Shown here: in pieces, positions 6,306 through 37,548 of the stretch | Layout of the letters: every line of letters starts with the position of its first letter | How positions within the stretch are numbered: position 1 is the first letter of the stretch | Source of the DNA: a virus | DNA length: 37,548 bases | Strand: one strand, 5' to 3' | Virus record (IMG/VR): IMGVR_UViG_3300045988_026391 | Location: 1 to 37,548 of that record | The notes under the pieces: model-generated | Seen by the model: only the letters and a program-made list of their open reading frames with translations | Told to the model about the DNA's origin: nothing | Databases searched by the model: none | Program-made: the position numbers and the translations under genes

Positions 6306-6499
6306 AAAAGTATTTTGAAAAGTTAGGAGTTAAGGTTTTGAAAACCATGGCACAATCAGCAGTTGGTGTCATTGGTGCCAGTACATTAATTAGTCAGGTG
6401 GATTGGAGGGTTGTTGTTTCAACCGCCCTCTTATCTGGATTAGTTTGTGTACTTACTAATTTGTCTGATTTGAAGGAGGAAGATATTAATGAAAATTAA
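6302..6499 (+). CDS. Holin (two predicted TMDs, charged C-terminus)
   Basis: 65 aa with TMDs [14 protein letters not shown] and [18 protein letters not shown] and the tail [11 protein letters not shown] start in a GTGA overlap with the upstream stop. It overlaps the lysin start by 11 nt. Confidence 0.65.
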
Positions 6500-7763
6500 A
6501 CGATTTTTAACAGGAGCACTTTTGAGTGTTAGCTTATTGTTCCAGTCTGTTGCTTATGCGGCTGTCGGGGATCAAGGTGTAGATTGGTCACGATACCAAG
6601 GCCCTAACGGTGTCTTCGGTTACGGTCATGATAAGTTTGCAATTGCTCAAATTGGCGGTGTTAACGGCGATGGAATTTACAAACAATCAACATATGAAAC
6701 GCAAGTGGCATCAGCAATTGCACAAGGCAAGCGTGCCCACACGTATATTTGGTACCAAGTTGGTAGCAATGCAAGCTTAGGTGAGCAAGTATTAAATACA
6801 TTTTTACCACAGGTTCAAACACCCAAAGGCTCAATCGTAGCGCTTGACTATGAAAGTGGTGCTAGCCCCGATAAACAAGCGAATACTAACGCAATTTTGC
6901 ATGGCATGCGTATGATTAAAGCTGCAGGTTATACACCAATGTATTACAGCTACAAGCCTTTCACGTTAGCTAACGTATATACGGATCAGATTATCCGTGA
7001 GTTCCCTAATTCGCTTTGGATGGCTGCGTACCCAAGTTACAATGTAACTCCAACACCAAATTATGACGTTTTTCCATCAATGGATGGGGTGTCTATCTAT
7101 CAGTTTACCTCGACTTATATCGCAGGAGGTCTTGATGGTAATATCGACCTAACTGGTATCACGGATAATGGTTATACCGCGAACAACAATCCAGCAACAC
7201 AAACGCCAGCAATTTCCCAAGGTCAACAAGCAGAAAGTACTCCTAATGCTGATATTGCTGTAGGAAACCAAGTAAAAGTCAAATTTAGCGCAAACGCATG
7301 GGCTACAGGACAAGCTATTCCAAGCTGGGTCAAAGGCCGAACATACAGCGTCGCACAAGTGTCTGGAAATCGTGTGTTGCTGGCGGATATTAATTCATGG
7401 ATCAACAAATCAGACACTGAAATTTCTTCAGTATCATCTGCACCAATTCAAGCCCCAGCTACTAGCACATATACAGTACGTTCTGGCGATACACTTTCTA
7501 GCATTGCTTCCAAATTTGGAACAAGCTACCAAGCGTTAGCAAGTTTGAATGGTATTTCAAACCCGAACCTCATCTTTGTTGGTCAAACCTTGCGTGTCAA
7601 CGGTTCAGCAAGTACTGGTTCAGTTTACTATACAGTGCGTGTTGGTGATAACTTGTCAGCAATTGCAAGTCGCTACGGAGTAAGCTACCAATCAATCGCA
7701 GCATTGAACGGGCTATCGAACGCCAATTTGATATTCCCAGGTCAAACGCTTAAAATTAAATAA
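6489..7763 (+). CDS. Endolysin: Sec-type signal peptide + GH25 muramidase + SH3b-like linker + 2x LysM
   Basis: The N-terminus [26 protein letters not shown] has n-, h- and c-regions and an AxA site. GVDWSRYQG and ALDYE fit GH25 motifs. Two LysM repeats are present ([43 protein letters not shown] and [43 protein letters not shown]). RBS is GAAGGAGG. Confidence 0.9.
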
Positions 7764-7774
7764 ACACTTTAACA

Positions 7775-7805
7775 CCCCTAGTCTTTGATTACTAGGGGCT
7801 TTTTT
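7775..7805 (+). terminator. Rho-independent terminator after the lysin gene
   Basis: CCCCTAGT (7775-7782) pairs with ACTAGGGG (7791-7798) across an 8-nt loop, followed by C + T6 (7800-7805). Confidence 0.8.
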
Positions 7806-7813
7806 GGTATAAT
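7785..7813 (+). promoter_or_regulatory. Sigma-A-type promoter embedded in the lysin terminator (TTGATT-17-TGgTATAAT)
   Basis: -35 TTGATT at 7785-7790 (terminator loop), 17-nt spacer, extended -10 TG at 7805-7806, TATAAT at 7808-7813. Confidence 0.55.
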
Positions 7814-7819
7814 GAATAA

Positions 7820-7884
7820 GAGGAAACAAGACTCGACTCTTGGCTCATGATGAGTTTATGGCTAGCATTTGCTAGCCCTTTTTT
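7820..7884 (+). ncRNA. Candidate ~65-nt short transcript or attenuated leader, from the 7785 promoter to the 7860 terminator
   Basis: Predicted start is ~7 nt after the -10 and the end is at the T-tract of the second terminator. No ORF longer than 12 codons. Purely predicted. Confidence 0.3.
7860..7884 (+). terminator. Second rho-independent terminator
   Basis: GGCTAGC (7860-7866) pairs with GCTAGCC (7871-7877) across loop ATTT, followed by C + T6 (7879-7884). Confidence 0.7.
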
Positions 7885-7894
7885 GTGCAAAAAT

Positions 7895-8162
7895 AGACCA
7901 GCCGTTTGTGGTTTCGTACTGGTCATGACCAGCTAAATTAGTTAACCAGATAAGTAATGACCAGCAATTACGTGGTCAAAACCAGCTAATGACCATCTTA
8001 CGTGGTCACCTCAAAACGTTGATATATAAGGATTTTATAGCATATATTATATATATAACCATTAAAAATAATATATATTATATATTTATTTATTATATTT
8101 AATTATTATATATTGTTTTTATTTTATTTATATAGCGAAAAAATAAGTGGTTACATGGTCAT
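7895..8162 (+). repeat. Iteron / AT-rich / 16-mer module, copy A (paralogue of 18516-18870)
   Basis: Half-sites (A/T)GACCAGC at 7895, 7926, 7958 and 7979-7986 (AAACCAGC). Palindrome TGGTCATGACCA at 7920-7931. TGACCA-N9-TGGTCA at 7958-7978 and TGACCA-N7-TGGTCA at 7990-8008, both containing TTACGTGGTCA. About 110 bp of almost pure A/T with (TA)n at 8037-8146. GTGGTTACATGGTCAT at 8147-8162. Confidence 0.8.
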
Positions 8163-8205
8163 TTTATAAAAAAATAAAAAATTTTAAAAAAGTTTTATTT
8201 TTCTA

Positions 8206-8234
8206 TTGACTTATAACACAAGATGTTGTATACT
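8206..8234 (+). promoter_or_regulatory. Early promoter P1 (TTGACT-17-TATACT) with an upstream A/T tract
   Basis: -35 at 8206-8211, -10 at 8229-8234, followed by a 5' UTR ending in AAAGGAGAAAGAAATG. Confidence 0.7.
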
Positions 8235-11289: not shown

Positions 11290-11337
11290 TCTGTTATAAC
11301 AAAAAAATAAAGTTTTTTATAAAAAAGATAAAAAATG

Positions 11338-11366: not shown

Positions 11367-11394
11367 AAGTATATAAAATAAAGGAGAAAGACAT

Positions 11395-11685
11395 ATGAGA
11401 ATTTATGTGAACAAACGCAAAAAATTGATTTTAGCACCCGAGCCCTATGAAAAATTTGGCGGTGTAAGTAATGAAACTATGCAAATTAAGAATGGCAAAT
11501 TTACAAAAGAAATTGAAAAAGAAGTTTCTGAAGCTATGCAAGAAATTATAGAACGATGGCAACCAATTTTTGATAATATCCCAACTGAAGAGCTCTTTGC
11601 TGAGAAGCAAAAACAATTAAGAATGTTTAGTGATTTTGATGAAACACTAACAGTTTTCGTAGAAAATAGCTTTAATGAAATGTGA
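11395..11685 (+). CDS. Hypothetical protein (96 aa)
   Basis: AAAGGAGAAAGACAT precedes the ATG. No motif recognised. Confidence 0.55.
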   Translation: MRIYVNKRKKLILAPEPYEKFGGVSNETMQIKNGKFTKEIEKEVSEAMQEIIERWQPIFDNIPTEELFAEKQKQLRMFSDFDETLTVFVENSFNEM

Positions 11686-11699
11686 GGAGAGGTAATGAA

Positions 11700-11843
11700 A
11701 TGAAATATAAAATTTATTATTCCATTCCTGAGGATATTTATTATTACACAATGAATGCAAAAGACGAAAAACAGCTAGTGAGGTTCCTTAAAATGCTTAC
11801 GGACGAGAAAGCTTATATCTTTACAATTAAGTTAATAAAATAA
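11700..11843 (+). CDS. Hypothetical 47-aa protein (MKYKIYYSIPEDIYYYT...)
   Basis: Not in the track. GAGGAGAGG lies upstream of ATG 11700. Confidence 0.4.
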   Translation: MKYKIYYSIPEDIYYYTMNAKDEKQLVRFLKMLTDEKAYIFTIKLIK

Positions 11844-11872: not shown

Positions 11873-11888
11873 CAGATGAGGATTGCAA

Positions 11889-12407
11889 ATGAGTGAAGAA
11901 TGGAGAGACGTGGTCGGATTTGAGGGGCTGTATCAAGTTAGCAGTGAGGGCCGTGTAAAGAGTTTGAAACGAAATGAAGAACGTTTTTTAAAGCCAAGCA
12001 TAGACAGAGGTGGTTATTTGCTTGTTGGCTTATGCGCTGGAGGAAAACAAAAAACTTATAAAGTTCACAGACTAGTCTGCCAAGCGTTCCATGAAAATCC
12101 AGAAGGAAAGCCACAAGTTAACCATATCAATGAAGATAAGACAGACAACAGAGTTGAAAATCTCGAATGGTGCACAGCAAGAGAAAATTGCAACCACGGA
12201 ACACGTAACGAGCGTTCTGCAAAAAATATAAGCAAAGCTCTTAGCAAACCAATTGGTCAATATACATTAGATGGAAAGCTTGTAAAAACATGGGTATCAC
12301 TTTCTGAAGTCGAAAGACAAACTGGATTCAGTTTCGGCAATATAAGTCAAGTCGCCAACGGGAAACGTAAAAAGGCTTATAACTTCATCTGGAAATACGT
12401 TGATTAG
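11889..12407 (+). CDS. Free-standing HNH homing endonuclease 2
   Basis: EEWRDVVGFEGLYQVSSEGRVKS (NUMOD4-type), VNHINEDKTDNRVENLEW (HNH_3-type), and a C-terminal IENR-like segment (TLDGKLVKTWVSLSEVERQTGFSFGNISQV). GAGGA lies 7 nt before ATG 11889. Confidence 0.85.
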   Translation: MSEEWRDVVGFEGLYQVSSEGRVKSLKRNEERFLKPSIDRGGYLLVGLCAGGKQKTYKVHRLVCQAFHENPEGKPQVNHINEDKTDNRVENLEWCTARENCNHGTRNERSAKNISKALSKPIGQYTLDGKLVKTWVSLSEVERQTGFSFGNISQVANGKRKKAYNFIWKYVD

Positions 12408-12881: not shown

Positions 12882-14055
12882 AGCTCGCAGATGGCAAAAA
12901 GAGGCGATTAAACGCTCAATAAACGACACCAGTGGTGGAATATTCCTCGAAGCGGCTGGAGGCCGTGGGAAAACGTTATGCACGTTAGAAATTGCCAAGC
13001 AAAAAAAAGCCAAAAAGGTTATCATTGTTAATAATAGATTAAGCATTTTAAATGGCTGGGAAAAAGCTTACAAGGACTTTGGCTATGATAAGTCGTTTGA
13101 ATTAGTTACAATTACGGATAGGAAACTCTCTAATTTAGTCAAAGAAGGCTCTAAATTAGCTTGTGACGTATTAATTCTCGATGAATGGCAAAATATAAGC
13201 TCTAATAGCTGTGTTAGTGCATACGCTAAAATAAAGCGCGATTACACAATCGGTTTAAGTGCTACACCGATTAGAAAGAAAGGGCAGAATTTTTATCCAC
13301 TCGAGAAAACACTTTGGAAGAAAGCAAACCCGAATAGAAAGTTCGATTGGCAGCTTGCACATGGCGCGATGATTTATGACCCGTACTCATATTCCAAAAC
13401 CAAATGGAAAGACTTCAAGAATTACGAATCTTATGTTTCTAATTTACCAAATTTTATGCGGTACGAAGAAGTTGAGAGAATCGAGGATGCAGAAGAAAAC
13501 AATGGCTTTGAGATTAAATTTTTCAAAAAAACGTTACCAGTCGCAAATCCTAAGGCGCTTGAAATGTTGAATACTTATAACGTTGTAACGAAGAATAACA
13601 AGTCTGCTATGAGTAAACTGTCATTTGGTAAAATAGCGTTTGAAAGGATTCTTAATCAGACTGGATTTGATATTGACTTCCCTAAGTTAAAAGCAGTTAA
13701 CGAAGACACACCAATGTTGAAAGAAGTTGATAGACTAATCAATAAAGCGCCTCACGAGATGCTTATCGTGACTAAAAGTGTGCAAATAGCTAACATTATA
13801 AAAGAGAGGAACCCAAAAATTGGAATTTGGACTGGCGCTACTAAAGAGTTACTTGACGCACCTGTTGTCGTTGCGACATCTCAAACGCTAGGTGTTGGGG
13901 TTGATGGTCTTCAGGATAAATTTAAAACGCTTGTTGTCCTTGACCCAGTAGACGAAGACAGCGGTGAATATGACGACTATCGTCAATTACTTTGGCGAAT
14001 AACAGGAAGCCGTCAAAAACACGATGTCAATATTTTAGAATTCTATTTTAAATAA
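12868..14055 (+). CDS. Superfamily-2 (DEAD/SNF2-like) DNA helicase
   Basis: Walker A EAAGGRGKT, motif II LDEWQ, motif III SATP. Confidence 0.75.
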   Translation: MKEFKARRWQKEAIKRSINDTSGGIFLEAAGGRGKTLCTLEIAKQKKAKKVIIVNNRLSILNGWEKAYKDFGYDKSFELVTITDRKLSNLVKEGSKLACDVLILDEWQNISSNSCVSAYAKIKRDYTIGLSATPIRKKGQNFYPLEKTLWKKANPNRKFDWQLAHGAMIYDPYSYSKTKWKDFKNYESYVSNLPNFMRYEEVERIEDAEENNGFEIKFFKKTLPVANPKALEMLNTYNVVTKNNKSAMSKLSFGKIAFERILNQTGFDIDFPKLKAVNEDTPMLKEVDRLINKAPHEMLIVTKSVQIANIIKERNPKIGIWTGATKELLDAPVVVATSQTLGVGVDGLQDKFKTLVVLDPVDEDSGEYDDYRQLLWRITGSRQKHDVNILEFYFK

Positions 14056-14080
14056 TTTTAAACTTTTTTCAAAAAAATTG

Positions 14081-14820: not shown

Positions 14821-15390
14821 ATGAAAGAAATTTGGAAGCTAGTTGTTGGGTATGAGGGGCTCTATGAAGTATCAAACATTGGTAGAGTGAGGAGCTTAGC
14901 CAGAATCGTTGAATGTAATGATGGCCGCAAGCGTAAAATAAAAGATAGAACACTCAAAAGCTCCCGTAACAGTGGTGGTTATTCTGGAATCACTCTTCAC
15001 AAAGACGGTTTTACAAAATCCGTTAATATTCACCGTATTGTCGCCGAAGCATTTGTTCCTAACCCCTTAGAAAAGGAAGAGGTGAACCACAAGGACGAAA
15101 ACCCAAGCAACAATCACGCAAACAACTTAGAATGGGTGACTCACAAAGAAAATTTAAATTACGGCAAGCGTTCGGAACGGGCGAGGAAGGCAATAGTTGA
15201 AGCACAAGGAAGGGCAGTGCGGCAGCTATCTAGAGATGGTGAGTTAGTTGCAGAATACGAAAGTTTGTCTGCGGCTTGTAATGCAACAGGCACTCATGTG
15301 TCTAATATAGTAAAGTGCGCCAAGGGTATATACAAAACAGCTGGCGGGTACATTTGGAAATATAAAAAAGAAACAATGGAGGAAAAATAA
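14821..15390 (+). CDS. Free-standing HNH homing endonuclease 3, inserted between erf and ssb
   Basis: EIWKLVVGYEGLYEVSNIGRVRS, VNHKDENPSNNHANNLEW, and C-terminal RQLSRDGELVAEYESLSAACNATGTHVSNI. Confidence 0.85.
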   Translation: MKEIWKLVVGYEGLYEVSNIGRVRSLARIVECNDGRKRKIKDRTLKSSRNSGGYSGITLHKDGFTKSVNIHRIVAEAFVPNPLEKEEVNHKDENPSNNHANNLEWVTHKENLNYGKRSERARKAIVEAQGRAVRQLSRDGELVAEYESLSAACNATGTHVSNIVKCAKGIYKTAGGYIWKYKKETMEEK

Positions 15391-15881: not shown

Positions 15882-16043
15882 TTGAAAGAGAGACGAAAAG
15901 TTAAGCATTACAGAATGTACATGCAAAGTATGAATTGGAAGTATGGTGGTTATTCCGATTATGAGTGGGACTTTTATAGGAAAGTTCAAAAATCATGGAA
16001 ATACCAAAGTAAAAGAAAGAGACAATATAAAGGAGAAAACTAA
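15882..16043 (+). CDS. Possible small, very basic protein (53 aa, TTG start)
   Basis: GGGGTGG lies before TTG 15882. Open to TAA at 16041-16043, which overlaps the prim-pol ATG (TAATG). K/R/Y/W-rich. The start is uncertain. Confidence 0.35.
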   Translation: MKERRKVKHYRMYMQSMNWKYGGYSDYEWDFYRKVQKSWKYQSKRKRQYKGEN

Positions 16044-16870
16044 TGGAGAATATGTTACGATTTGCGCTAGGTTATGCTCGAAGAGGGTTTGATGTTGTTC
16101 CGTTGATACCAAATACTAAACGCCCAATACAGAAGTTTGCTGACAGACCACCAATGACTGAAGAAGAAATTATAGAGGTATGGACAAAGACACCAAATGC
16201 AAACATTGCCTTAAAGACAATAGATTTTTTTGTAGTTGATATTGACACGCACGGAGAAGCAAACGGATACCAATCATTAAAAAACTGGGAACACGTCAAA
16301 AAGATACCTCGCACAAGCCAAGTTATCAGTGCTAGTGGCGGTAAGCACTTATATTTTAAGAAGCCAGTTGGGTTCGAATTACCGCAAAAAATTGCATTTT
16401 TAGACGGTGTAGACATCAAAGCTCATGTTAATAATTATGTCGTAGCGCCACCAAGCGTTATCGGTGATTCATTTTATAAGTGGGATATGGATAATTCTCT
16501 GGATAACCTAGAGTTTGCCATGGCTACAGATGAATTTGTCAAGGCGATTAAGGAGACAGATGGTATTGAGGACGAGAAAAACCAATACAAAGGTGCTCTT
16601 AGCAAGTTTAAAGGAGACGGTCAGAAGGTTTCTAAAGTGACACAAGCTGTCAATGAGTGTCTTAAAGGGCTAGGTGGTGAAGGCGCTCGGAATAATACAG
16701 TGGCAAGTTATGTTGGTAAACTTATTTCGATGGGTATTGAAAAAGAAATTGTTGTTGTATTAGTCAATATCATGAACAGCAAGAGCCAAAAGCCACTTGG
16801 AGCTAAGGAACTACACAATACAATTGAGTCTATGTACAATACAGATAGAAGATATAGTAAAACGCAGTAA
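16043..16870 (+). CDS. Bifunctional primase-polymerase (prim-pol) domain protein
   Basis: FALGYARRGFDVVPLIPNTKRP, FVVDIDTHG (DxD) and SGGKHLYF motifs are typical of the archaeo-eukaryotic-type prim-pol N-terminal domain. Confidence 0.75.
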   Translation: MENMLRFALGYARRGFDVVPLIPNTKRPIQKFADRPPMTEEEIIEVWTKTPNANIALKTIDFFVVDIDTHGEANGYQSLKNWEHVKKIPRTSQVISASGGKHLYFKKPVGFELPQKIAFLDGVDIKAHVNNYVVAPPSVIGDSFYKWDMDNSLDNLEFAMATDEFVKAIKETDGIEDEKNQYKGALSKFKGDGQKVSKVTQAVNECLKGLGGEGARNNTVASYVGKLISMGIEKEIVVVLVNIMNSKSQKPLGAKELHNTIESMYNTDRRYSKTQ

Positions 16871-16898
16871 ATAAATTTAAACTTTTTTCAAAAAAGTG

Positions 16899-16926
16899 TT
16901 GACAATATATAAAAATATGATATACT
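16899..16926 (+). promoter_or_regulatory. Promoter P5 (TTGACA-16-TGaTATACT) with the conserved cassette
   Basis: 16876-16904 reads TTTAAACTTTTTTCAAAAAAGTGTTGACA. Extended -10 TG at 16918-16919, TATACT at 16921-16926. Confidence 0.75.
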
Positions 16927-17127: not shown

Positions 17128-18477
17128 ATGGGAGAAGTAGTTAAAATGGAAAAAACAGTTAGCAATTCGTCTTTAAAACTGGATAAGAACGGAATTCCAG
17201 TTAGCAATTCTATTTATAACGTTAAAACGTTACTTTTAAACGCAGATGTATTCGCTGATAATTTAGCATTCAACGAGTTCACGCAAGAGCCAGAGGTAAT
17301 CAACGACTTTTATTTGAATGGCACTTTAATTCCAAAAGGCTCAATCAAACCAAGTTTTGAGGATATCCTTTCAGAATATTTTGAAACAGAGCTTGATGTC
17401 GTGTTCAAACCAACTGCAATCACTGGAGCGCTCAATATTTTTTGGGATACTAAGAAGTACAATCCAGTTAAGGAGTATATGGAACAAGCCTTAGAGAGCT
17501 GGGACGGAAAAGAACGACTCAAAACAGTGTTTAATTACTGGCTTGGTGCTGAAGTTAATGAAACGACAGAAACTATTGCCAAGGTATTCTTTACAAGCGC
17601 CGTAGCCAAGGTTTACGAGCCACTCACAAAGGTGGATACAGTCCTAGACTTAGTCGGTGGGCAAGGCGTTGGGAAGACTTCATTCTTAGCTAAGATTGCC
17701 CGTGGCTGGTATACTTCCAACGCCATTAGCTTTACGGATAAGGACTCTTATAACGTTATGCTTAAAGCTTTAATCGTGAATGATGACGAGATGACAGCTT
17801 CTAAACGAATGAATTTTGAGGAAACCAAGTCTTTTATTTCTAAGACGGTTTTGGAGTTCCGCAAATCTTATGATAGACGTGGTGCTTCATACGCAAAGAA
17901 CTTTGTTATTGCACGAACAACAAACAATATTGAATATTTAAAAGACAACACTGGTGACCGACGATTTATGCCGATTTTAGTGAATCCAGAAGAGCAAAAG
18001 AAGCATCCAATGCAGATGACTGAAGAGGATATCATCCAAATTTGGGGCGAAGCGGTTTCACTTTATAAAAATGGATATGACTTAGACAGTTTTGATAAAC
18101 TGGATACAGAGCGTATTGAATACCAAGAAAACTTTAAGTACATCGACCCAATGGTTGAAGAAATTAACCAATATTTAGATTTGCTACTACCTGAAAACTT
18201 CAGTGAGTTAAATATCACACGACAAAGACAGCTAGCACAAAGCCAGCTTTACGGCTTTAAATACCAGTTGGTAGAAGATGGCACCTATGAACTAACTACT
18301 AAGCAAGATTTTGTGACTTTGAAGCAAATCGCTTACAACGTCTTTAATAAAGAAGCAACGGACAAAAAAATAATTAGCAGAATTAAAATTTGGATGGATA
18401 ACAATCCAGATTTTAAGAATACACGCAAAGCAGTGAGAGGCGGATATATTCGTGGGTATGAGCGAATCGAAAAGTAG
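17128..18477 (+). CDS. VirE-family (P4-type) primase-associated helicase / NTPase
   Basis: Walker A GGQGVGKTS and Walker B LIVNDDEM, followed by ..TTNN..YLKDNTGDRRFMPI, as in virulence-associated protein E-type phage primases. Confidence 0.75.
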   Translation: MGEVVKMEKTVSNSSLKLDKNGIPVSNSIYNVKTLLLNADVFADNLAFNEFTQEPEVINDFYLNGTLIPKGSIKPSFEDILSEYFETELDVVFKPTAITGALNIFWDTKKYNPVKEYMEQALESWDGKERLKTVFNYWLGAEVNETTETIAKVFFTSAVAKVYEPLTKVDTVLDLVGGQGVGKTSFLAKIARGWYTSNAISFTDKDSYNVMLKALIVNDDEMTASKRMNFEETKSFISKTVLEFRKSYDRRGASYAKNFVIARTTNNIEYLKDNTGDRRFMPILVNPEEQKKHPMQMTEEDIIQIWGEAVSLYKNGYDLDSFDKLDTERIEYQENFKYIDPMVEEINQYLDLLLPENFSELNITRQRQLAQSQLYGFKYQLVEDGTYELTTKQDFVTLKQIAYNVFNKEATDKKIISRIKIWMDNNPDFKNTRKAVRGGYIRGYERIEK

Positions 18478-18515
18478 TAAAGAATAAATATTCATTTATG
18501 CAGTAAAATGTATAA

Positions 18516-18870
18516 AAAAGTGACCACCAACTACGTGGTCATCGTAAAAAGTGACCACCAAACACGTGGTCATAATTCAATTTTTTTAGCAAAAAACCAT
18601 TAAATGACCAGCAAATTTAAAAAGTGACCAGCTTACGTGGCCGCCTCTTGAAGCCAGTTATACCAATGGTTTTGGCTATTTTATGGTAAAATAGTGACCA
18701 GCTTACGTGGTCATCGTAAAACCCAATAGTATCAAGGGTTTAAGCTATATAATATATAATATAACCACTAAATATAATATATATAATATATTTTAATTAT
18801 TATATATAATATTTATATATTGTTTTTATTTTATTTATAAGAGGTAAAAAAATGGTGGTTACGTGGTCAT
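18516..18870 (+). repeat. Iteron / AT-rich / 16-mer module, copy B (candidate origin and/or regulated promoter region)
   Basis: Four ~31-bp units start at 18516, 18547, 18619 and 18689, reading AAA(A/T)AGTGACCA(C/G)C..ACGTGG(T/C)C... The first two are exactly tandem. About 105 bp of A/T with (TA)n lies at 18745-18850. GTGGTTACGTGGTCAT lies at 18855-18870. Confidence 0.8.
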
Positions 18871-18879
18871 AAGTATAAA
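18855..18879 (+). promoter_or_regulatory. Conserved 16-mer followed after 3 nt by TATAAA; candidate factor-dependent middle promoter
   Basis: The same arrangement occurs at 8147-8170 (16-mer + 2 nt + TATAAA). There is no recognisable -35. It is the only promoter-like element upstream of gene 18908. Confidence 0.4.
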
Positions 18880-18907
18880 ATATGCAAACATACAATAGGA
18901 GAATAGA

Positions 18908-19315
18908 ATGGATAAAATGATTATTTTGAAAGAAGAAGAATACTTGGAACGCTGCTGGCAAGCAGAAACATGGAAGGAACTAGCTGGGGTAATTACTAAT
19001 TACACCTGGATTGCTACAGATGGGAATTCAGTAAGTATGCAACGTAAAATCACACGCACTAAACAGTATCTGAAGAACCGTATCTTGACTGAGAGCAAAA
19101 TCAGGAAACTAACTGGTGAGAGATTTGAGAAGCGTAAGGAACAAATTAAATTAACGTTTGTCATGGAAATTGATGAACAGCTTGGGAAAGCTACTCAACT
19201 TTGGCATTACAACAAGAAAGCTGATGAGGCTGGAATTCCAGAGAAAGAACGCATGGAATATTTTGTGAACAAAGCAACCAAGAAAGCAGAAAAATATTTT
19301 AAACTTTTTCAATAA
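18908..19315 (+). CDS. Hypothetical protein (135 aa), first middle gene
   Basis: AGGAG RBS. No motif recognised. The C-terminal codons (KYFKLFQ*) double as the upstream half of promoter cassette P6. Confidence 0.55.
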   Translation: MDKMIILKEEEYLERCWQAETWKELAGVITNYTWIATDGNSVSMQRKITRTKQYLKNRILTESKIRKLTGERFEKRKEQIKLTFVMEIDEQLGKATQLWHYNKKADEAGIPEKERMEYFVNKATKKAEKYFKLFQ

Positions 19316-19320
19316 AATAG

Positions 19321-34758: not shown

Positions 34759-37548
34759 TGCTTTTAAATATCCATAATAAAAACCTTGAAATCATTGGCG
34801 TATTAGACAATGAATCACAAGACGCCATTGGATACAGCGAAGACAAGTGGACAAGAGACCTAGAAACTGGGTCTTCTGTCTACGAGTTTACCGCTTTCAA
34901 TAGAAAATTATCTTATGAAACAGTATATACCAATCCTTTCAACTGTTTAAATGTTGGTAATTATGTTTCATTTAACTATCACGGCGAAGACCATGTTTTT
35001 AAAATTATGTCGGTTGAGAAAACGGGCAAAAATACGTACTGTTATTGTGAGAATCTTAACCTAGAGCTACGAAACGAAATGGTAGGAGCTTACGATTCTG
35101 GTAAAGATGCGTTAACCATCGAAGAACATATCTCAAAGATGGCTTTACTAAACTTCACTAACATGACTATTGGTTTGAATGAGCTGTCAAACGTTGGTAA
35201 AGTTGTTAGTTTTACAAATGAGGAAACAAAGCTTTCCCGCTTGCTAGCACTTTTTAAAGCTTTTGGCGCTGAACATAAATTCACAACTAAATTAAATTCA
35301 AGTGGAAAAGTAAAAGAATTTAGAGTTGACATCTACAAAAAAAGGGGATCTGACGGCACTGGCGGAGTTGGTAGGTTTGTCAAAGACAAGGTTTTGCGAA
35401 AAGGCGAAAACATTAAGTCTTTGAAAGAAAAACAAGATATTCTTGAAATCTTCAATATGACATTGCCGAAAGGTGTCAAAAAAGTCACACGAGTAACCCA
35501 AGACAAAAAACCAACTGTCAACTCTAACGAGGTTGTAGTTAGCTCAAACATGATTAACGCTAACGGTACTCTGTCAATCGAGAATATTCAAACTATTTTA
35601 AAATTGTGTTATGAGTATCGTTTGTTACCGTCTGGTGTTATCTCCCAACTATACCTAGAAAGCTTTTGGGGTAATTCCAATGTTGCTAGAGTAGATAACA
35701 ACTGGTCTGGTATGACATGGACAGGCAATCCAAACAGACCATCTGGCGTAGTTGTTTCGCAAGGTAGTGCACGTCCTTCAAACGAGGGCGGGTATTATAT
35801 GCACTTCGCAAACACGGGCGACTTTTTTAAAGATTATTTCTATCTTCTTGCTAAACAAGGCATTTACAACGTAGCTAACAAGAATAATATTTCAGATTAT
35901 ACCAAAGGTCTATTTAGAGTCGGTGGGGCTACATATGACTATGCTGCAGCTGGTTATGACCACTACAATAGTTTGATGTCAGGCATACGTAATGGGATTA
36001 ATGCAAAAAACGGCAACGTACTAGATACGTATGATAATGATTGGAACAATCCTCGTGTCGTAACATCAACTACAGTAGAGCAAGCTGGCGCACCTAACAC
36101 AAAAAGAGCGCTAGAAGGATTGTCATCACTTGTCGGGAGTACTGTTGGTAATGGGCAGTGTTACGCAGTACCAGCTTGGTTATCTTACAAGCTAGGCGGC
36201 GCTGGGCTAGGCTGTGGACTTGGCAGTTTCTCTGGGTTAGTTGGCTCTGGTATTCGTGCTTGTGACATCGGGACTGACTACAACTGGGGGAACTTCGGAT
36301 GGGGAGTTGCTGGTTCTGGATTCTCTGGGGCAAACATTGTAGCCGGTACTATCTTAAATATTAAACCAAACTATGGTTCGCCTTGGTATACTGGATACTA
36401 TGGGCACACAGTAGTAGTTGAGTCTGTAAACGGCGATACTGTAACCGTCCTTCAACAAAACTACGCAGGCAAGCAATATGTCACACGTGACAAATATAGT
36501 CTTTCTGCTATCATTCCAAGCATCCAAACGTTAGTGCATCCATCAGAACTAGCTAAAGGTGGACGAGTAGATGGCGGTAACGCAGTAGTCAAAGTTGACG
36601 GAGTTGACAGATATGTTAATGTTGATTTGCCTACTGACGTCAAAACTACGGAAGAGACGGAAGAATTTTATATCCCAGAAGACTACGCAAGAGAATGGTA
36701 TGATGAAAACGGTAATTTAGAATTCTACATTAAAAAATCAGAAATTTATGCACCGCAAAGCGCAAATAATTTTCCTATTGCATTCGTTTCAAATGATAAT
36801 AGAGACAGATGGATTCGAAGAGATTTCGAATACGAAGTTGACAGTATTGAAGAACTAATCGAAAAATCTCTCGAAGATTTAAAAAAATCTTGCTATCCAA
36901 CTCTTGACTATGAAGTAGATGGATTCTTTGAGGCCTCGATTGGTGACACTTATCTCATTGAAGATGACGACTTTGAACCAAAGCTGACTATTAAAGCGCG
37001 TGTAATTAATCAAGAAATTTCACATACCCGACCAGAAATTAACAAAACAACACTATCAAATTACATTAAATTAAAATCTGAAGTACCAGATGCCCTCACA
37101 AGTAGACTCCAACAACTGATTGACGCTTCCATACCATACGAAATCAGAGTTACCGCATCAAATGGTACGTCTTTCAAGAATAGCGAAGGTGAAAGCGAAA
37201 TCACAGTAGAGCTTTTAAAATCTGGTATCACTCAAGAAGCTGAATTTTTATTCAAAGATGGGGATTCAATTGTCGGAAAAGGTACAAAATTTCTTGTCAA
37301 ATCATCTGCTTTTGAAGGCTTATTCAATCTGACAATTTCAGCGTACACAGGTAATGAAGAAGTGGCTACAAAACAAGTGTCGTTCACAAACATGGTCGAG
37401 CCGACAAATATAATCATCAAGACGTCAAGCGGAAATATTTTCAAAAATAATCTTATCAACACCACTCTTACAGCTACATTATGGCGAGGTGGCAAAGAGA
37501 TTGATCAAGAAGGCAAAGATTACAGCTATATTTGGACGAAGACAGATG
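34758..37548 (+). CDS. Tail-associated lysin (Tal), 971 aa in total with 56-180: N-terminal tail-endopeptidase-type domain, embedded glucosaminidase-like and CHAP domains, C-terminal Ig-like modules
   Basis: I translated it by hand from ATG 34758 (TAATG overlap with Dit) and found no stop to the window end; it is absent from the track only because it runs off the end. The N-terminus MLLNIHNKNLEIIGVLDNE..YEFTAF is typical of phage minor structural / prophage-tail proteins. QLYLESFWG (Glu301) is glucosaminidase/lysozyme-like. GNGQCY (Cys468) and GHTVVV (His550) indicate CHAP. Confidence 0.85.
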   Translation, partial: MLLNIHNKNLEIIGVLDNESQDAIGYSEDKWTRDLETGSSVYEFTAFNRKLSYETVYTNPFNCLNVGNYVSFNYHGEDHVFKIMSVEKTGKNTYCYCENLNLELRNEMVGAYDSGKDALTIEEHISKMALLNFTNMTIGLNELSNVGKVVSFTNEETKLSRLLALFKAFGAEHKFTTKLNSSGKVKEFRVDIYKKRGSDGTGGVGRFVKDKVLRKGENIKSLKEKQDILEIFNMTLPKGVKKVTRVTQDKKPTVNSNEVVVSSNMINANGTLSIENIQTILKLCYEYRLLPSGVISQLYLESFWGNSNVARVDNNWSGMTWTGNPNRPSGVVVSQGSARPSNEGGYYMHFANTGDFFKDYFYLLAKQGIYNVANKNNISDYTKGLFRVGGATYDYAAAGYDHYNSLMSGIRNGINAKNGNVLDTYDNDWNNPRVVTSTTVEQAGAPNTKRALEGLSSLVGSTVGNGQCYAVPAWLSYKLGGAGLGCGLGSFSGLVGSGIRACDIGTDYNWGNFGWGVAGSGFSGANIVAGTILNIKPNYGSPWYTGYYGHTVVVESVNGDTVTVLQQNYAGKQYVTRDKYSLSAIIPSIQTLVHPSELAKGGRVDGGNAVVKVDGVDRYVNVDLPTDVKTTEETEEFYIPEDYAREWYDENGNLEFYIKKSEIYAPQSANNFPIAFVSNDNRDRWIRRDFEYEVDSIEELIEKSLEDLKKSCYPTLDYEVDGFFEASIGDTYLIEDDDFEPKLTIKARVINQEISHTRPEINKTTLSNYIKLKSEVPDALTSRLQQLIDASIPYEIRVTASNGTSFKNSEGESEITVELLKSGITQEAEFLFKDGDSIVGKGTKFLVKSSAFEGLFNLTISAYTGNEEVATKQVSFTNMVEPTNIIIKTSSGNIFKNNLINTTLTATLWRGGKEIDQEGKDYSYIWTKTD
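37494..37548. repeat. Second copy of the 55-bp terminal overlap
   Basis: Identical to 1-55. Confidence 0.9.

Follow-up and report, generated by a model that had tools for sequence, protein, structure and literature searches.

We have identified a candidate SaPI-type replication origin and a paralogous second module in the genome of a virulent streptococcal siphophage of the P738-like group. The window, by which we mean the whole 37,548-nucleotide stretch that was analyzed (IMGVR_UViG_3300045988_026391), represents one circular phage genome. The non-coding gap that follows its Rep/VapE helicase gene, here called module B, is probably a SaPI-type origin cognate to the Rep encoded at 17128-18477, while module A, located between the endolysin gene and the early promoter, would be either a second origin or a Rep-bound cis element. 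Judged from sequence homology and from analogy with SaPI replicons, we give this reading a probability of roughly three in four. The clustering of repeats and an AT-rich tract in 18478-18907 is far beyond chance. An origin of the SaPI kind is already known; its conserved duplicate is undescribed. To our knowledge, two origins have not been described for SaPI-type replicons, and we know of no description of a conserved, recombining second module for Rep/VapE replicons.

Characteristic of SaPI-type origins are ATP-independent binding and melting by Rep and the replication of an origin plasmid that is supplied with pri-rep. SaPI Reps are self-loading initiator helicases whose C-terminal winged helix recognises penta- or hexanucleotide iterons (PMC9371898). 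Directly after rep, SaPI origins contain six to twelve iterons arranged around an AT-rich centre; at least two per side point in opposite directions, half of them being described per side, and two Rep hexamers probably load, one per side (PMC9371898). For most Streptococcus phages, the origin is predicted to lie downstream of the replication module (PMC13575424). In phage Sfi21, the replication module contains a 302-bp non-coding element that acts as an origin and, when cloned, provides copy-number-dependent phage resistance and is amplified upon infection (PMC6356513). The replication module of P738-like phages has been described as unique among dairy phages (PMC8470116), and a description of the origin of P738-group phages was not found in the literature searched.

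Bases 1-55 of the window are identical to bases 37494-37548, giving a circular genome unit of 37,493 bp. According to the ORF list and annotation of the window, the + strand carries all identifiable genes, so GC and cumulative skew are uninformative on the origin; cumulative GC skew rises monotonically over the window without an origin signal. Domain scans found an SF2 helicase, Erf, Prim-Pol and VapE as replication genes, and none of the 20 early and middle ORFs scanned matched a gp38-type origin-binding protein, a gp39 loader or a DnaB-type helicase. The genes and signals relevant to the two modules are as follows.

6489-7763: endolysin gene, upstream of module A
7775-7798 and 7860-7877, + strand: two intrinsic terminators (-13.2 and -12.3 kcal/mol)
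8206-8234, + strand: early promoter TTGACT-17-TATACT, 44 bp downstream of the module A doublet
9073: gene of a 73-aa HTH_3 (XRE-type) protein, early region
14137: Erf gene (annotation)
16043-16870, + strand: Prim-Pol primase with a PriCT_1 domain (domain scan), the partner of Rep as in SaPI pri-rep
17128-18477, + strand: Rep/VapE helicase gene (449 aa, Pfam VapE-like_dom), proposed self-loading initiator
18908 (start): clade-specific ORF with a 135-aa product, the first ORF after module B
20363: exonuclease gene (annotation)
21688: small-terminase gene (annotation)

The preliminary description of this DNA had reported four units of about 31 bp, an AT-rich tract and a conserved 16-mer in a 430-bp gap after ORF 17128-18477, and all of these elements were recovered at their positions, as was the gap itself. 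The first two units, at 18516 and 18547, are indeed tandem (31 bp apart and 93% identical over 28 nt), and those at 18619 and 18689 match at 95% over 22 nt. Palindromes of the form TGACCA-N7/9-TGGTCA were found at three of the four units, the one at 18625 having a degenerate right arm, and the tract taken to be nearly pure A/T proved to be 92.5% A+T. Two of the earlier readings were revised. The 31-bp units exist, but the repeat is a 6-7-bp site in mixed orientations, and the 16-mer is present but is composed of a tandem doublet of an 8-bp unit. Module B consists of the following features.

18478-18907 (430 bp), + strand: module B, the complete non-coding gap following the Rep/VapE gene, proposed SaPI-type origin
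18521-18541: palindromic iteron pair B1, TGACCAC-N7-GTGGTCA
18552-18572: palindromic iteron pair B2, 31 bp (three helical turns) from B1
18594: extra site
18605-18611, + strand: single half-site TGACCAG
18625-18643: iteron pair B3, TGACCAGCTTACGTGGCCG, with degenerate right arm (TGGCCG)
18695-18713: palindromic iteron pair B4, TGACCAGCTTACGTGGTCA
18745-18850 (106 bp): AT-rich tract, proposed DNA unwinding element
18762-18768, + strand: inner-left site TAACCAC at the left edge of the AT tract, oriented opposite to the right doublet
18855-18870, + strand: right doublet GTGGTTACGTGGTCAT, direct 8-bp repeats GTGGTTAC and GTGGTCAT

The rep stop codon is at 18477, the first site of the module at 18521 and the next ORF at 18908. 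Module B contains nine exact TGACCA/TGGTCA hexamers, or 13 sites under the relaxed pattern WRACCAB, of which about 10-11 lie to the left of the AT tract and two to the right. The inner-left side of the tract carries one degenerate site in the window; at this position (18762-18768) the relatives read AATGACCAC in the alignment. The sequence AAATGACCA around the half-site at 18605-18611 is invariant in 7/7 aligned genomes. Module B thus has the features of a SaPI origin in that it lies directly downstream of rep, carries six to twelve short iterons and follows the gene of an initiator homologous to SaPI Rep. Its sites also flank the AT tract, with the right doublet inverted relative to the inner-left site, but they are distributed at about 11:2. 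Placement right after rep is a property of module B only and not of module A. As in S. thermophilus phages, the element is non-coding and downstream of the replication module. A sigma-70-type promoter was sought in module B and none was found; since the promoter search placed no promoter between the one near 16900 and ORF 18908, module B would be transcribed through.

The true repeat is the 7-mer TNACCAC/GTGGTNA, which occurs in inverted, everted and direct arrangements, rather than a 31-bp iteron. B1 and B2 are each a composite palindrome with a conserved unit of 6-7 bp in mixed orientation. Tandem direct repeats of 17-22 bp in a single orientation, as in iteron plasmids, do not occur, only B1/B2 being tandem, at 31 bp, and module B is not a plasmid-type iteron array. 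In the window, TGACCA-N5-11-TGGTCA is present five times versus none in 100 shuffles, TGACCASC eight times versus 0.9 expected, and the 9-mer ACGTGGTCA, with one mismatch or fewer, 13 times versus 4.7 expected. Two of the five palindromes and three exact ACGTGGTCA 9-mers fall in the second module at 7890-8165. The density of WRACCAB per kb is about 45 in module A and about 35 in module B, compared to 2.3 genome-wide. The AT tracts of modules A and B are the least and second least stable 100-bp windows of the genome, with duplex free energies of -88.0 and -88.2, respectively; both lie 5.7 sd below the genome mean (-127.7, sd 6.9), and the next lowest value after the modules is -102.7. A scan of species-representative genome contigs for ACGTGGTCACGTGGTCA gave 91 matches, none of them in Streptococcus. 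These look like chance matches, most of them falling in unrelated high-GC genomes, and species-representative genomes therefore gave no indication of chromosomal decoys or of satellites with a module-type origin.

The earlier account had described one array, in the 430-bp gap. That array is there, and it has a paralogous copy at 7890-8165 which the first reading did not mention. The features of this copy, module A, are listed below.

7890-8165, + strand: module A, paralogous to module B and flanked by the endolysin terminators and the early promoter
7920-7931: everted pair TGGTCATGACCA, with a GTC-TGACCA core invariant across aligned module A copies
7958-7978: palindromic iteron pair A1
7990-8008: palindromic iteron pair A2, 32 bp from A1
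8030 to ~8146 (~117 bp): AT-rich tract, 90.7% A+T
8056: inner-left site TAACCAT
8147-8162, + strand: right doublet GTGGTTACATGGTCAT, composed of GTGGTTAC and ATGGTCAT

Modules A and B share one grammar, consisting of a left site cluster, an AT tract and a right doublet, and module A likewise has 13 relaxed sites. Module A is situated 10.6 kb upstream of module B and 9 kb upstream of rep; the two are directly oriented and bracket the early and replication cluster (8.2-18.5 kb). The two terminators (7775-7877) shield module A from late-gene transcription, and module A sends no transcript into itself.

No binder could be named in the preliminary description, a view that can now be replaced by a specific candidate. 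The 17128 product matches Pfam VapE-like_dom (E 1.2e-62) and SaPI1 Rep1 of PDB entry 7PDS (E 1.2e-38; profile E 3.6e-53 over residues 69-425), an entry that represents SaPI1 Rep1 bound to DNA (PMC9371898). Its AF2 model (pLDDT 85.6) was matched to 7PDS by Foldseek with an E of 5e-31 and a TM of 0.67-0.70 over ~450 columns; the next matches were NrS-1, poxvirus D5/E5, SaPI5 PriRep5, papillomavirus E1, AAV Rep40 and MCM. By alignment and predicted fold, the 17128 product is a full-length homologue of SaPI1 Rep. In the model, the C-terminus consists of helices 398-406 and 413-424 and a beta-hairpin at 429-446, i.e. a helix-helix-beta-hairpin at 398-446. Because the C-terminal winged helix of SaPI Rep binds iterons, the C-terminal domain of the 17128 product (approximately aa 336-449, nt 18133-18474) can be named as the candidate iteron binder.

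Conservation was assessed in the P738-like clade. The module B gap shows 69-75% DNA identity to seven GenBank records (SG586P1, SG586P3, Mushu, CSJC, Taco, P738 and D4446), and whole genomes were compared for six of these (all but SG586P3), which together with the window gives seven aligned genomes. The search of related phages for such iterons that had been suggested in the preliminary description found the sites kept: in the six relatives, palindromes and ACGTGGTCA 9-mers are confined to the two modules, with two in module A (one in D4446) and three in module B. When module B was aligned with the six relatives, column identity was 86%; half-sites are invariant and spacers and flanks vary. 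The window's module B is only ~78% identical to the other six copies. From the last palindrome to the doublet, the distance in module B is exactly 176 bp in 7/7 aligned genomes. In module A, aligned over the seven genomes, most half-sites are invariant, spacers and flanks again vary, the early promoter at 8206-8234 is kept, and the copies of the relatives have a doublet at the inner-left side of the AT tract. Both modules also occur in two metagenomic relatives, L022 and L023, whose Reps are 89% and 93% identical. In L023, module A has GTGGTA-type sites and module B retains GTGGTCA, which means that either position 6 is unread by the protein or the modules differ in affinity. Module A is kept in 9/9 P738-like genomes examined and absent from three other lineages; a lineage with a Rep 69% identical has TGGTCA sites after rep and no module upstream of the early promoter. 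Judged from its presence in all nine clade genomes and the invariance of most half-sites across the seven aligned, module A is under selection.

The two modules have also exchanged sequence. In the P738 subclade, modules A and B of one genome are 63-66% identical, compared to 79% in the window. The window's module A is 72-75% identical to B-type cores versus 64-65% to A-type cores, although its left half is still A-type. Its AT tract and doublet were thus replaced by B-type sequence, suggesting that the two modules are interchangeable. A window-specific GGTTAC variant is found in both modules, and in L022 the palindrome and doublet are identical between modules A and B. Such genome-specific variants common to both modules indicate gene conversion between them.

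All members of the P738 clade, down to 69% Rep identity, keep TGGTCA-type sites, and analysis of covariation between site and helicase needs lineages of 50% identity or less. A viral-contig scan with the Rep protein provided four near-identical relatives, and tblastn against GenBank phages was used instead. This identified VapE helicases of streptococcal phages that are 42-49% identical and in which the gap after the gene again consists of a left cluster, an AT tract and a right 8-mer doublet. Altogether, five streptococcal phage lineages share the post-helicase layout, with the hexamers TGGTCA, GGTAAC, TGTCAC, TGTAAC and GGTAGCA, so that the hexamer changes with the helicase lineage. The four other lineages are represented by the following phages.

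SW30 (Moineauvirus): hexamer GGTAAC, right doublet TACGGTAACTCGGTAACC
Javan414: hexamer TGTCAC, right doublet GATGTCACAATGTCACA
SMP: hexamer TGTAAC, right doublet ATGTAACCTTGTAACC
PH15: GGTAGCA, inverted doublets flanking the AT tract on both sides

In SW30, 6/8 motif copies fall in the post-VapE gap, and in Javan414 9/9 do. This confinement to one gap makes a single module the norm and two modules particular to the P738-like clade. Compared with Javan414 and SW30, the helicase is 59-62% identical in the ATPase core, 27-31% in the N-terminal domain and 25-36% in the C-terminal domain; specificity could therefore reside in the N-terminal domain, which is as divergent as the C-terminal one. The ORF just downstream of the module was considered as a conserved origin partner and rejected, since these ORFs are unrelated between helicase lineages.

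The Rep homology, the SaPI-like layout, the conservation and the recurrence in other lineages support the proposal of the preliminary description that the gap after the primase/helicase genes is the phage origin and/or a protein-binding platform. We hypothesize, by analogy with SaPI replicons, that the C-terminal winged helices of Rep would recognise the 7-bp TNACCAC/GTGGTNA sites, which cluster left of the ~105-bp, 92% A+T tract and form the tandem doublet right of it. Rep hexamers would assemble on either side and the AT tract would melt without a separate loader, after which Rep would unwind the DNA and the adjacent Prim-Pol (16043-16870) would prime synthesis. Module A would presumably be bound by the same protein, because its grammar is the same as that of module B.

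By analogy with known replicons, module A may serve as a second origin, may block forks in the manner of SPP1 oriR, or may be an enhancer element like P4 crr. We regard it as possible, if somewhat doubtful, that module B is the working origin and module A a Rep-binding cis element that does not fire, acting either as a fork roadblock leading to recombination-dependent concatemers or as a titration or autoregulatory site by the early promoter. Stalling at gp38-bound oriR has been proposed as the concatemer switch of SPP1 (PMC6316719), and Erf and an exonuclease are encoded by the present phage. The transcriptional setting, with module A shielded by terminators and module B transcribed through, would fit such a division of labor, as would the three other lineages that manage with one module. 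However, module A lacks nothing that module B has, its AT tract being equally unstable and its doublet present, and the B-type replacement of its AT tract and doublet suggests interchangeability. A further consequence of the duplication, which we consider very unlikely to be realized, is that Erf-mediated recombination between the modules or firing at both could release or over-replicate a 10.6-kb self-replicating circle and amplify early gene dosage. If so, the circle would hold one origin, rep, pri and all early genes, a 27-kb late-gene circle would keep the other origin, and recombination of this kind would have left its footprint in the A/B gene conversion of the window and L022.

Readings in which the modules have no part in initiation were also weighed. 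It is unlikely that they are operator arrays for a regulator, either the HTH_3 protein of 9073 or the 18908 product, controlling the early promoter and the genes after module B. Module A does end 44 bp upstream of the early promoter, TGACCA-N7-9-TGGTCA resembles a dimer operator, and the early region includes the gene of an XRE-type HTH protein; ORF 18908 occurs in TGGTCA lineages only, with 84-90% conservation. Both proteins, being clade-restricted and co-occurring with TGGTCA, may be alternative binders. Nevertheless, the hexamers are 7 to 9 bp apart depending on the site and the genome, single, everted and direct 8-bp doublet sites are unsuited to a fixed dimer, module B lacks a detectable sigma-70-type promoter, the grammar recurs after VapE genes where the downstream ORFs are unrelated, and extreme ~100-bp AT tracts flanked by sites are not an operator feature. 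That the palindromes act as hairpins, whether minus-strand intrinsic terminators or other structural RNA or ssDNA elements, is highly improbable. On the minus strand, B1 and B2 do fit the formal pattern of a terminator, with T runs behind them and a folding energy of -10.8 kcal/mol, comparable with that of real terminators (-12 to -13 kcal/mol). But no minus-strand gene turned up in the annotation, T runs are missing from the module A palindromes, and the arms keep their sequence unchanged, with no compensatory changes. In Javan414 and PH15, direct repeats account for many of the equivalent sites, and an Rfam scan of the whole window matched no family. Repeated short motifs and bent AT-rich DNA are typical of small-terminase binding sites, yet the notion that the modules are packaging (pac/cos) or terminase-binding sites is hardly credible, given that 2.8 kb and 13.5 kb separate them from the small-terminase gene downstream, that the element goes with the helicase even in lineages whose packaging modules differ, such as the cos-group Moineauvirus SW30, and that its hexamer changes with the helicase lineage. 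The preferred reading remains that module B is a SaPI-type origin and that module A is a second origin or a Rep-bound cis element.

On this reading, P738-like streptococcal phages, which infect S. thermophilus, S. lutetiensis, S. equinus and S. pasteurianus, gain a candidate origin and a named candidate initiator. The origin fragment is also a candidate for conferring Per-type (origin-titration) resistance on dairy starters. The second module offers a system in which to ask, for a self-loading SF3-type helicase, whether there are two origins or a fork barrier that turns theta replication into concatemer formation, and the five lineages, each with its own hexamer, are a natural set for mapping winged-helix specificity.

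The modules can be compared with several known systems. Iteron-type theta plasmids (lactococcal pCI305-type, RepA/pi-type) likewise have initiator sites adjoining an AT-rich unwinding element, but their iterons are tandem, direct and 17-22 bp long and their Rep recruits the host helicase, whereas the sites here are of 6-7 bp in mixed orientation and the initiator is the helicase. In satellite phage P4, the alpha protein binds the same short iterons at ori and crr, which are a few kb apart and both needed in cis; crr consists of repeated iteron blocks and is not a second origin-like unit. The alpha protein combines primase, SF3 helicase and a C-terminal winged-helix DNA-binding domain (PMC2777425), whereas in our phage primase and helicase are separate proteins and a full AT tract is present in each module. 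The two origins of SPP1, oriL and oriR, are organised alike, each with repeats and an AT-rich unwinding element; they lie ~13 kb apart on the circular genome and are served by one origin-binding protein, and restart after fork stalling would use a single-strand annealing protein, an exonuclease, SSB and a resolvase (PMC6316719). The present genome likewise contains two similarly organised repeat and unwinding elements and encodes Erf and an exonuclease. It differs from SPP1 in having a self-loading SF3-like Rep in place of gp38, the gp39 loader and the DnaB-type gp40, and in that both elements are intergenic and bracket the early operon, while oriL lies inside gene 38.

The known or predicted origins of S. 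thermophilus phages (the Sfi21 PER element and the predicted origin of 2972) are likewise non-coding elements of ~300-430 bp downstream of the replication module (PMC13575424, PMC6356513). Moineauvirus SW30 has the same grammar after VapE and differs by GGTAAC in place of TGGTCA and by its single module. The closest likeness is to the origins of SaPI1 (Rep1) and SaPIbov1 (Rep) (PMC9371898), with which the present system shares an initiator homologous from end to end, in sequence as well as in fold. In both, the origin or proposed origin comes right after the rep stop, short iterons (6-7 bp) lie on both sides of an AT tract, here with the right doublet inverted relative to the inner-left site, and a Prim-Pol primase gene is found just upstream of rep. 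The present system differs in belonging to a virulent streptococcal siphophage and not to a satellite island, in having ~11 sites on the left versus two on the right, and in possessing a second complete module 10.6 kb away, for which SaPIs have no described counterpart. In this way, the SaPI Rep/iteron rule would be extended to at least five streptococcal phage lineages.

The paralogous module A (7890-8165) of the window is a chimera, in which the left half is A-type and the AT tract and right doublet of direct 8-bp repeats are B-type (7985-8165 vs. 18690-18870 of module B, the proposed SaPI-type origin at 18478-18907). A 27-nt run, TTATATATTGTTTTTATTTTATTTATA, is common to both modules within these regions. 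The presence of a B-type AT tract and doublet in module A is evidence for gene conversion within the genome. In L023, a metagenomic relative that carries both modules and encodes a Rep 93% identical to that of the window, module A (830-1110) has GTGGTA/TACCAC-type sites and the doublet CTGGTTACGTGGTAAC, whereas module B (11390-11745) retains GTGGTCA. This implies either tolerance at position 6 of the site or unequal affinity of the two modules.

Features in and around the modules and in the early region of the window.
18661-18675, 18729-18744 and 8026-8041: motif RGGNTTTA..RGC, e.g. TATCAAGGGTTTAAGC; also in three further sequences (L013, L014 and L017)
18496-18503 and 18880-18889: TTATGCAG and ATATGCAAAC, respectively, on either side of module B
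18908-19315: ORF 18908, directly after module B; 135 aa, lysine-rich
14049-14076, 16868-16895 and 19290-19317, also about 11300-11330: 28-nt A/T element TAAATAATTTTAAACTTTTTTCAAAAAA
9278-10018, 11883-12407 and 14821-15390: three inserted ORFs for HNH-type homing endonucleases, early region

The RGGNTTTA..RGC motif is placed in the interval that separates the last left-hand iteron from the AT tract, frequently within a small AACCC..GGGTT hairpin, and is found in every lineage despite differing iterons. It might serve as a priming site or as a site for a host factor.

The product of ORF 18908 had no match in searches of Pfam and PHROG. Its conservation in the clade is 84-90%, higher than that of Rep, and the ORFs at the equivalent position in other lineages are unrelated to ORF 18908. 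The A/T element lies 7-8 nt 5' of GTTGACA-17-TATAAT promoters, which precede Erf, the VapE operon, ORF 19380 and ORF 11395; it looks like an UP-element coupled to strong internal promoters.

Since bases 1-55 are identical to bases 37494-37548, the window represents a phage genome of 37,493 bp whose assembly closes into a circle. Part of its larger size is accounted for by the endonuclease genes, as these are missing at corresponding positions in some relatives.

Motifs similar to those flanking module B border the module in other phages, taking the form (T)ATGCAA in P738 and in Javan414 and SMP, which belong to other helicase lineages, vs. TATACAA in the P738-like relatives Mushu, CSJC and Taco. 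These flanking motifs appear weakly similar to a DnaA box.
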